Source: Perna viridis (lineage: Eukaryota). From it: a stretch of 64,000 nt of DNA. Below are positions 29,055 to 31,746 of this stretch, one piece after another. The stretch covers positions 10,664,001 through 10,728,000 of the forward strand of contig CM074516.1 in the NCBI GenBank assembly GCA_037379345.1, written 5' to 3'. A program made the position numbers and the translations under genes. The notes beneath the pieces were generated by a model that made no database searches, was not told the DNA's origin, and saw only the letters and a list, made by a program, of their open reading frames with translations. Numbering within the stretch: the stretch's first letter is position 1; every line of letters begins with the position of its first letter.

Positions 29055-31746
29055 TTAAGATAGAGAATCACACAAAGAATTCCAAAAATGCTCTTGATTT
29101 TCTGGATCTGTCGGAAAATCAATATAAACTTCTTCCTTCATCATTTCCCAAAGATAGTCAGGTATTTCGTTATGTGGAATATCATCTTTGAACACTATTA
29201 TCATCATATTTGTCCCTCGTCTCGATTCCCCGTATTCGGTTATTGACATGCGTACTTCAAACAGGCACCAAGATGAACGAAGAAAATCTCTTGATAAAAT
29301 AATTATGACTTTCCGGCTCTGGTGAATGGCATTGATTATATTATCAGCTATATCACATCCAGGAATAAAATCACGATGGTGAATACAAACATTAAATCCG
29401 TGTGTCAGTTCCAAATTCTCAATAACATCTTTGGTTATTTCTCGATCTTCATCTGCGTATGAAAGGAAGGCATCGAAGCGGTAATTATCAAGATTTGTTT
29501 GACGTTGGTATCCTCTACCGTAATGTCGCTTTGCTATGTAATACCAATACCTTAGTCGCCAACGGTTTTTGTAGAGAATAATTAAAACAACAAGAACTAT
29601 AAATGCTACAATACAACATGATGTAATAACAATAATGGTCGTGTATGAGGAACACTCTTTTGTCAAATCATCGAGTGCGCCTTTTAAAGAACCATATTGT
29701 CCATTCTTACATTTGTATGAGACAAAGTTTTCAAACGATCTTTGATTGTTTACGATCCATTTTACAAAATACAATGTTTCACATGTACATTGAAATAAGT
29801 TGTTGGCCATATTTATTTTCAAATGTTCAGATAAAATTTCAGAAAGTAAATCAATGCCTTGTTTTGATAAAAACATAATCTGATTATCAGACAAGTCTAT
29901 GTATCTGAGGTTTGCCAAATGAGTTATTGATGCAGTCCAATCAGAAATCTTGTTTTTGTCAAGGTAGAGACATTGCAGCTCTTTAAGGTGAATGAATATA
30001 TCGGAATGAAGGGATGTAATACTGTTAGACGAAAGGATCAGCTTAAGTAATTTGGATTGGGCTGTGAAAAGAGGAACGAACGAACTCTGACCAAAAATAT
30101 GTCCGATCAGATTATTTCCTAAATTCAACTCTTCAAGTGAGATCATGTCGGTAAATGCATGCGATGACAGAAAGGAACAGTGGTTGTTTGATAGATCTAA
30201 ATGTATAAGTTTAGATGCATTACAAATAGGGCCAGTTATGTTATAGAACTCGTTATTGCTCAAAACAAGTTTCCTTAAACTGTTTGTGTGGAACACGGTC
30301 CACCCAATTGTATTCCCTAAATTAGAGTTATTCAAAACCAATTGTTCGATGTTTGGAGGAAGAAAAACAACCAAAAAAGGAACATTCAGAGCTTGATCAC
30401 TTGGATATGTACATGTCAATGGTATTACAGATGTCTTTTTTTCGGATGCAGACAAAACTTCGACATACTGTTGGTTTTCTACCTTATCACATCCTCCAAT
30501 ACATCTATCAAGCAGGGTAACATAGTCATTAGTTCCAACTAATCTTCCTCGTTGAACTGCACAATTTATCTCTCTATTAAAAGGTTCACAAAATGGGTAT
30601 CCAGAATCATCTACGGATCCTGTTCTTGAATTCATATTGCTCAAATCCACAAACGTGAGGTTAGTGAGGTCATAAATATTACAATACGTATATCGACTTC
30701 GAACGAAACGATTGTCTCTAACACTTAAGGATTTCAAAGTTCTCGGCAAATAATGCAAAATCCCAGTTTGTGCAGATGCAATGTTATTTCCATTTAAATG
30801 TAATTCCTGTAATGAAGTATTATAAAGACCCTTTAAGTCATCACAAAAAATATTTGTTGATATCCCAGCTTCGCATTGCAGAAGATTTGCTTTTAAGGAG
30901 ATTATTTTTGTCAAACTAAGATCAGCGGTGACGTTTTGTAAGCCACAGAATCCAAGTTGACGATTAAATGATAAATCGAGAGAAGTAAGATTTTTAAGGA
31001 CGGAAATTGCATTCCTCTCTATATACTGTAAGGAGCATTGCAGAGAATAGTTTTGAGGCCAGAAATATTCGGCTGACAGGTCAAGCTTTTCGATATGATT
31101 AATATGTTCAAAAAATGTTGTCTCTATTCTTAAAAGCCTGTAAAGGTGGCATCTCCCTTGAATTTTCAGCGATGTCAAATTTGTTAGAGAGGAAAATCCA
31201 GGACCAAACGATATATTATACACAGAATCAATTGACAAATGACGAAGTGTTTGTAAACCTTTAAAAACATCATCAATGGTATTTAAAGAACTTTCAGTCA
31301 TCATATTAAAGGATAAGTCAATGCTTTCTAAAGAATGGAGCCCTTGAAATGTATTACTGGTTAAATGCATGTGATCCAACGGAATAGAATTAGATGATAA
31401 ATTAAGCGTTCGCAGATTTGATAGACTTGAAAAAAAGTTGTCTTGTTTCGTTTGAATGCAGAGATTCTATTTCATTACTGGATAGATCAAGGAGTTCCAC
31501 ATGGTTTAAATTGTAAAAATCATTTTTCAAAGGACAGTCAATTAGTTTATTGAAGCTTAAGTTAACCGAGGTAACGTCATGGTAAAACGTAGGACTTTTT
31601 GAGAGTCTTAATTTGGAACAATTCACGTCCCAGCCAGATAAATGCTTTGTACATTTACATCTTTTTTCCGAGGAACACTCTTGGCTACCGACTAATCTAT
31701 AACATTGTCCTATTATTAGAATAAGTAATACTATCCTTTCCATCAT
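29055..31746 (-). CDS. Toll-like receptor copy 3 (signal peptide, LRRNT, LRRs, Cys-rich island, LRRs, LRRCT, TM, TIR); one apparent frameshift in a homopolymer
   Basis: 774-aa ORF 29055-31379 plus N-terminal ORF with ATG at 31746. Removing one base from the A7 run at 31430-31436 joins them (QLFSSLSNLRTLNLSSNSIPLDHM) into an 896-aa protein. TIR motifs FDAFLSYA, HHRDFIPG, SSWCLFE and FW are present. Confidence 0.9.

Follow-up and report, generated by a model that had tools for sequence, protein, structure and literature searches.

In this study, we find that a segment of about 85 residues interrupting the leucine-rich repeat (LRR) array of a Toll-like receptor (TLR) gene, copy 3 of a tandem array in the 64-kb stretch of DNA analysed (the window), is, on sequence comparison, that gene's version of a loop which breaks the LRR solenoid at the same point throughout a large mollusc TLR family. 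In the branch to which the window gene belongs, we hold with moderate confidence that this loop is anchored by a disulfide, flexible and left uncut. An earlier note on this DNA had taken the segment for the mark of a protease-gated or island-diversified TLR subfamily. The lesson of the window gene is more modest, the furin site being a property of one broken copy, and the stronger lead for protease processing would be offered by sister clades whose loops are free of cysteine and carry a Lys-Arg (KR) pair. The TLR repertoires of bivalves are larger than any others known (PMC10279657, available text), and few ligands or activation steps have been worked out for their receptors. Two forms of the loop, one rich in Cys and N-glycan sequons and one Cys-free and dibasic, divide the family: the former receptors are predicted to remain intact, the latter to undergo processing, and the residues behind that prediction are thereby named.

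Copy 3 is one of six TLR copies within the window; two further copies lie just upstream and another 130 kb away. In the assembly, 9/9 array members carry frameshifts or stops (window 5849-53824, L026 and L028), and these breaks were compared with reads for copy 3 alone. Arrays of TLR genes rich in broken copies are known in sea urchins (PMC3367398, available part). Among named proteins the closest, at 45-46% identity, are TLRs of mussels, namely Mytilus californianus XP_052090822.1 and its orthologs in M. coruscus and M. trossulus, and we accordingly take the host for a bivalve. The island of copy 1 (we use this word for the interrupting segment) has a stop at its third Cys, the gene at L005 has a single stop directly after the N-terminal cap, and copy 2 is covered by short low-depth pieces in four runs, which give nothing firm on its expression. 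Elsewhere in the window, about 2 kb holding the 5' end of copy 2 and its upstream region is duplicated (14964-16937 and 25242-28060, about 10.2 kb apart, 83-98% identity), which is left over from an additional duplication. At 17675-17740 a brief match to the juxtamembrane portion of a TLR stands by itself; run contigs cover it, and it marks a further gene fragment. High-copy repeats occupy 22155-24780 and 26100-27410, where thousands of contigs from four runs reach a summed depth of up to 130,000, and an open frame of 156 residues at 60883-61353 is unrelated to TLRs.

Table 1. Features of the TLR copies discussed in the text (positions are those of the window)
Feature	Position	Strand	Remarks
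TLR copy 3, coding region	29055-31746	-	signal peptide, LRRNT, LRRs, loop, LRRCT, TM, TIR; single coding exon
Copy 3, TIR domain	29058-29483	-	Pfam TIR, E 5e-18
Copy 3, transmembrane segment	29571-29636	-	hydrophobic run in the translation
Copy 3, island SGYPFC...FLPPN, 85 aa	30351-30605	-	loop proper begins near 30629
Copy 3, short hydrophobic strand and PPN turn	30351-30377	-	return to the LRR array
Copy 3, variable distal loop	30378-30542	-	three more Cys; low model confidence
Copy 3, QRGR	30543-30554	-	conserved Arg; second Arg retained solely within this tandem array; no furin consensus
Copy 3, C-x8-C-x3-R anchor	30549-30590	-	predicted helix; conserved part of the loop
Copy 3, final LRR strand ahead of the loop, LTFVDLSNMN	30630-30659	-	12th LRR by our count; strand E261-263 in the model
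Copy 3, seven-base homopolymer bearing the frameshift	31430-31436	-	polymorphic among sequencing runs
Copy 3, splice acceptor of a 5' untranslated intron	31767-31769	-	AG precedes the exit point
Copy 1, anchor motif	7326-7391	-	QRGR; broken gene
Copy 2, island	13772-14011	-	the array's sole R-X-K-R (RGKR, 13946-13957); several frameshifts and stops
Copy 4	42600-44280	+	broken; nearly all of the island deleted, after SGYPF
Copy 5, anchor motif	47201-47266	-	ERVK; R replaces the first Cys; broken gene
Copy 6, anchor motif	53138-53203	-	KRGR; broken gene

The coding region of copy 3 spans 2692 nt from an ATG at 31746, holds an open reading frame at 29055-31466 and is shifted out of frame by a single base in the assembly; the allele without the extra base encodes 896 residues, and orthologs have 893-906. 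Among six contig runs, the extra base in the homopolymer is kept in the contigs of X1, X2 and X12 and missing in X18, and the contigs of X7 and X11 break there. The X18 contig has 11 other differences over 2968 bases, with no stop among those listed. Given this polymorphism from run to run, the frameshift most likely represents a common null allele that segregates together with an intact allele, and an assembly error as its source is ruled out by the run contigs with and without the base. The X2 and X18 contigs leave the window sequence at 31767 with an identical loose end, which, lying behind an AG, points to a spliced 5' exon. Raw RNA read coverage of copy 3 is thin, two runs giving 23 and 12 reads with roughly one-fifth of each run read, and all of these reads run in the direction expected of minus-strand RNA. 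Copy 3 is thus transcribed and spliced, with the caveat that none of the listed runs is recorded as RNA: most of the contig runs are presumed to be RNA by the index, and X1 has no entry on this point. Pfam matches its LRRs and TIR, and together with the structure model and with fold matches to TLR ectodomains these make it an LRR ectodomain with one transmembrane (TM) segment and a TIR domain. Its domain set, the absence of an internal LRRCT/LRRNT pair and its length place it with the V-type single-cysteine-cluster receptors, the definition of which includes a length of >800 aa (PMC10279657, available text).

The non-LRR segment described in the earlier note between SGYPFC and PPN is indeed there, and the LRR pattern is lost about 8 residues before the start then given, directly after LTFVDLSNMN. 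The spacing motif of the proposed four-Cys pattern, C..C....RG(K)R..C..C, is likewise present, with five Cys rather than four in copy 3, which reads C-x8-C-x3-R-G-R-x13-C-x3-C-x25-C. The basic tetrapeptides assigned to copies 1, 2, 5 and 6 were all recovered, as was QRGR in copy 3, where the interval then quoted (30543-30551) covers RGR only.

Two AlphaFold models agree on the outline of the island. The first was built on an alignment of 108 rows, covers 597 residues of the ectodomain (pLDDT 89, pTM 0.90) and has a solenoid with 10 concave strands ahead of the island and 8 after it, by a hand count of the strand list; two more LRRs of copy 3 lie upstream of the frameshift, outside these 10. 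Within the island it has a helix at residues 285-296 that spans the second Cys and QRG (block pLDDT 72-79), low confidence over residues 301-350 (block pLDDT 51-66) and a short strand, E353-356 (block pLDDT 89). The second model, from a 32-row alignment of clade members only, concurs with a helix at 146-163 and a return strand at E218-220, the remainder having pLDDT 31-65. Solenoid blocks are mostly above pLDDT 85; in the island, the prediction reaches moderate or high confidence for the anchor helix and the return strand only. The conserved Arg falls within the helix, and about 45 residues of the distal loop are predicted disordered, in both models. The predicted order is hence helix, disorder and return strand. 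PDB sequence and fold searches, in which the island was never the sole query, returned LRR solenoids with tied scores that are uninformative on the island, and a search of the ESM Atlas returned generic LRR clusters only.

Across the family, the loop was cut out between profiles of its two flanks, and a row had to match both. A non-LRR loop of 24-288 residues stands at the same place in 114/114 mollusc-type TLR rows that pass this filter (87 of 97 representatives shorter than 1100 aa, 8 genes of the own genome and 19 additional rows), which, having been collected with island-bearing queries, are no census. The median number of residues between the flanks is 56-58 and the maximum 288, where a plain LRR would leave an estimated 10-14 or so. 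The named rows come from mussels, oysters, pearl oyster, freshwater mussels, clam, abalone and octopus; none of the vertebrate or insect matches passed the two-flank filter. The boundaries of the loop are conserved, with a His no more than nine residues from the strand in 86/110 rows and Pro/Ser-x-x-hydrophobic at the end in 107/110. C-x3-R occurs in 31/102 loops against 8.7 by shuffling, and C-x-[DE]-x-R in 14/102 against 1.2; this excess across the family gives the Cys-x3-Arg pair the look of an ancient structural element. Homologs of the island region did not come up in a word-based search and were recovered by profile searches. In three ENA proteins (P0150, P0286 and P0288) the same slot is filled by a low-complexity loop of 288 residues with RKRTRRS. 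Eight near-identical tandem TLR copies at a spacing of about 4.75 kb (L019, L020-L024, L037-L045; G000:C3:57.22-57.26 Mb), seven of them with open frames of 830 residues, represent a recent amplification or an assembly effect.

The clade of the window gene was defined without the insert, from a quick tree of the region after it (92 rows). In this 15-row clade (SH-aLRT 99), C-x(7-10)-C-x3-R is present in 15/15 rows and in 0/77 of the others. Among 19 aligned members the invariant columns of the loop are two Cys, the Arg and the final Pro only; from the conserved Arg on, the sequence varies as RGR, RGK, RSS, RGQ, RIK, RST, RKS and RNT. The Mytilus orthologs share a loop with five Cys. An N-glycan sequon is found in the distal loop of 12/13 lineages, copy 3 being the sole exception, where shuffling gives 6.1 (post hoc p 0.0002). 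We infer from these features a disulfide pairing, a structural role for the conserved Arg and a use of the sequons, where the presence of Cys across the clade allowed no disulfide pairs to be derived. The conserved C-x8-C-x3-R helix would likely be pinned by a disulfide and followed by a flexible, likely glycosylated spacer and a short strand back to the solenoid. As the uncut Z-loop of mosquito Toll5A suggests by analogy, the loop may act at a dimer or ligand surface, and the spacer would then tune receptor pairing or ligand access without a furin cut.

The convertase gate proposed in the earlier note has to be weighed against this reading. The furin consensus is R-X-K/R-R, and R-G-R lies outside the convertase spacing rule. 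That furin or a related convertase cuts receptors of the window's clade at RG(K)R and so gates their activation seems to us very unlikely, notwithstanding the RGKR of copy 2, the dibasic pair of KRGR in copy 6 and in L002, and the R-G-R/K present in 7/8 array copies that retain the island. In copy 3, for which there are long transcript contigs and an intact allele, KR, RR and R-X-X-R are all absent from the island. The consensus is found in 0/16 clade rows, a set which does not include the broken copy 2 (in the motif counts, 23/136 rows had been dropped, nearly all near-duplicates). Nor is the basic motif conserved in intact homologs, since those of Mytilus and Pinctada have EKLRSS (the Mytilus orthologs), EKSRIK and QKYRGQ in its place. 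The motif also lies within the predicted helix, although the second Arg in RGR, which model 1 puts at the end of that helix beside the least ordered stretch, could be reached by a protease. The absence of a furin site nevertheless leaves cleavage possible, because vertebrate Z-loops are also cut without a basic motif. TLR7/8/9 are processed by several proteases, among them cathepsins and asparagine endopeptidase, which cut the Z-loops in this way (PMC11763108), the halves of TLR7 are held by a disulfide (PMC4432728) and TLR15 is activated by microbial proteases (PMC4888287), as the available portions of these sources have it. With such precedents, the distal loop of the window clade could serve as a true Z-loop or as protease bait if it is cut by enzymes independent of a basic motif (cathepsins, asparagine endopeptidase or proteases of microbes), the extra Cys holding the halves together. 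Its predicted disorder, its variable sequence and the Cys on both sides would suit this. We regard it as rather unlikely, there being no direct sign of cleavage; the sequon excess suggests a shielded loop instead, and dN/dS does not exceed 1 as it might in a bait.

The same divergence data bear on whether the island is a folded, ligand-binding insert of the plant type, diversified by positive selection. The distal part is the most divergent segment in 7/9 paralog pairs, its DNA identity being the lowest of 8 non-overlapping segments and only 0.37-0.55 in six distant pairs, and the four to six Cys of many clade members could close a small domain. To this extent the segment is, as had been noted, the most divergent part between paralogs; this holds for its 3' part, whereas the C-x8-C-x3-R part is about as conserved in DNA as the flanking LRRs. 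The three closest pairs have an island dN/dS of 0.90, 0.97 and 0.79, and for four distant pairs it ranges over 0.14-0.48. It is below 1 in 7/7 pairs, all of which involve assembly-broken copies and 74-85 codons. In the three close pairs it compares with 0.24-0.53 in the post-insert LRRs and in TM plus TIR, and in the closest pair the pre-insert LRRs also reach 0.89. This suggests, within the limits of few codons and broken copies, an island under weak constraint without an excess of replacements, and the idea of an island-diversified receptor is not borne out. Length (73-128 residues) and Cys number (3-6) also vary inside the clade, and no confident fold emerged even from the clade-only alignment, so that we give a plant-type domain little chance of being correct. 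Less credible still, and in our judgement extremely improbable, is the view of the segment as a decayed LRR, or as an LRRCT/LRRNT pair inside the array like that of multiple-cysteine-cluster Tolls. In favour of this view, the segment is Cys-rich and internal to the LRR array, and its short end strand rejoins the solenoid. Against this, Pfam LRR, LRRNT and LRRCT profiles did not match the islands of copy 3, L005 and L010 at E up to 10, neither model places LRR strands or an LRRCT/LRRNT pair there, C-x-C occurs in 4/102 loops (5.7 by shuffling) and is absent from the island of copy 3, 10/102 loops have no Cys, and the TIR domains group away from those of insect Tolls. On these grounds copy 3 is not a multiple-cysteine-cluster Toll, and the segment, rightly called non-LRR in the earlier note, is neither degenerate LRRs nor a cap pair. 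The uncut, disulfide-anchored loop is the account that we prefer for the window branch.

It is in sister branches that the protease idea, whose furin form is not supported for the window clade, finds a place, in the form of a conserved dibasic motif in Cys-free loops. Among 15 such loops, [KR]R-x-aliphatic occurs in 10 against 1.1 by shuffling and R-X-K/R-R in 3 against 0.2, and a sequon in 2 against 5.2 expected; R-X-K/R-R is found in 3/28 one-Cys loops (0.8 by shuffling) and in 1/54 other loops with at least two Cys (0.8), with the caveat that post hoc splits, related rows and the addition of KR-clade rows by targeted search make p-values overstate independence. The KR clade (SH-aLRT 100, from the four of its rows whose length sufficed for tree building) consists of L016, L031, L032 and L034 of the own genome and P0122, P0290 and P0291 of Mytilus; CAC5386326.1 is a receptor of this clade. 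The KR is present in 7/7, is the only invariant pair inside the loop and stands ten residues past the His, with Val or Leu two places on. L016 (with L030) lies at G000:C1:26072089-26075679 and L031, L032 and L034 at G000:C6:15.53-15.56 Mb; L016, L031 and L032 have open frames of 860-886 residues and L034 is a piece of 193, and in the short loop of these paralogs the KR is followed by x-Val. In Mytilus TLR-m (such as AGG10810.1, with RIKR), R-x-K-R is present in 3/3 aligned rows and in all 6 cluster members with a recovered loop, and it is kept across M. galloprovincialis, M. edulis, M. trossulus and M. coruscus while the neighbouring residues vary. Single cases of convertase-like sites occur in abalone, freshwater mussel and oyster proteins and in other rows. 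From the motif, branches with Cys-free KR loops are likely to be cleaved receptors, and the paralogs L016, L031, L032 and L034 are the best candidates for convertase processing. It is possible, and we put it forward tentatively as something short of probable, that, apart from vertebrates, the slot is a switchable one, in which Cys-free branches are cut by furin-like convertases and need the cut while the window branch is locked by disulfides and glycans. The same tentative reading would have the cut needed to traffic or to signal, as in TLR7/8, with loops that are Cys-free and poor in sequons, and would have sites gained several times, as RIKR, INKR, RVKR, RKRR, RHRR and RLKR, which come from mussel, abalone, freshwater mussel and oyster proteins. 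If true, there would be protease-processed TLRs outside vertebrates and insects.

Among known systems, copy 3 comes closest to the mollusc V-type TLRs (TLR4-like and TLR13-like), with the same order of LRRNT, LRRs, LRRCT, TM and TIR, a length of >800 aa, tandem arrays and many broken copies. An internal loop or cleavage is not mentioned for these receptors in the available text of PMC10279657 (Saco et al. 2023) and PMC12521104; in that of the latter, a 2025 review, the strings 'cleav' and 'proteoly' do not occur. The only mollusc paper found to use 'Z-loop' applies it, in its available part, to vertebrate TLR7 (PMC10401143). A literature search, with subscription journals outside its scope, returned no report of the loop or of cleavage in mollusc TLRs, and the loop thus appears to be undescribed as far as we have searched. 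By their TIR domains, 29 insert-bearing rows form a group of their own, separate from TLR7/8, TLR13/21/22, TLR4 and insect Tolls (SH-aLRT 94; a quick tree of 59 rows, with TLR9 and TLR3 left out and no AU test). This supports a separation from vertebrate TLR7/8, and it fits the placement of the mollusc single-cluster subfamilies in a clade without any vertebrate TLR (PMC10279657, available text).

Like the TLR7/8/9 Z-loop, the mollusc loop is a non-LRR stretch some tens of residues long that leaves the array just behind an LRR strand, about halfway along the ectodomain; it contains Cys and, in some branches of the family, convertase-like sites. It differs in belonging to a separate TIR group and, in the window clade, in having no furin site. 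About 12 LRRs follow the Z-loop of TLR7, compared with 8 strands after the mollusc loop. The latter comes after the 12th LRR, or after the 14th in family members that have two extra N-terminal LRRs, and the Z-loop of TLR7 lies at LRR14/15 (PMC4432728, available part). A whole-length profile alignment laid the mollusc insert over the Z-loop region of TLR7/8; this match was set aside after a local register test, in which the pre-insert block scored 66 at the pre-Z-loop register (rank 5 of 6) against a best of 110 elsewhere in TLR7/8. We favour analogy as the explanation of the likeness, deep homology being a possibility. The islands of BRI1-type plant LRR receptor kinases are inserts of similar length within the LRR solenoid that fold back as an ordered ligand site, whereas the mollusc loop is predicted to be mostly disordered and is variable in length. 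An invertebrate Z-loop is already in print for Aedes Toll5A, where it makes ligand contact at the dimer interface and processing was not detected in insect cells (PMC9427763, available part). Both are mid-ectodomain loops of invertebrate receptors, but that of Toll5A has 11 residues (455-465) and belongs to a multiple-cysteine-cluster receptor that binds Spaetzle, whereas the mollusc loop has 24-288 residues and belongs to a single-cluster receptor.
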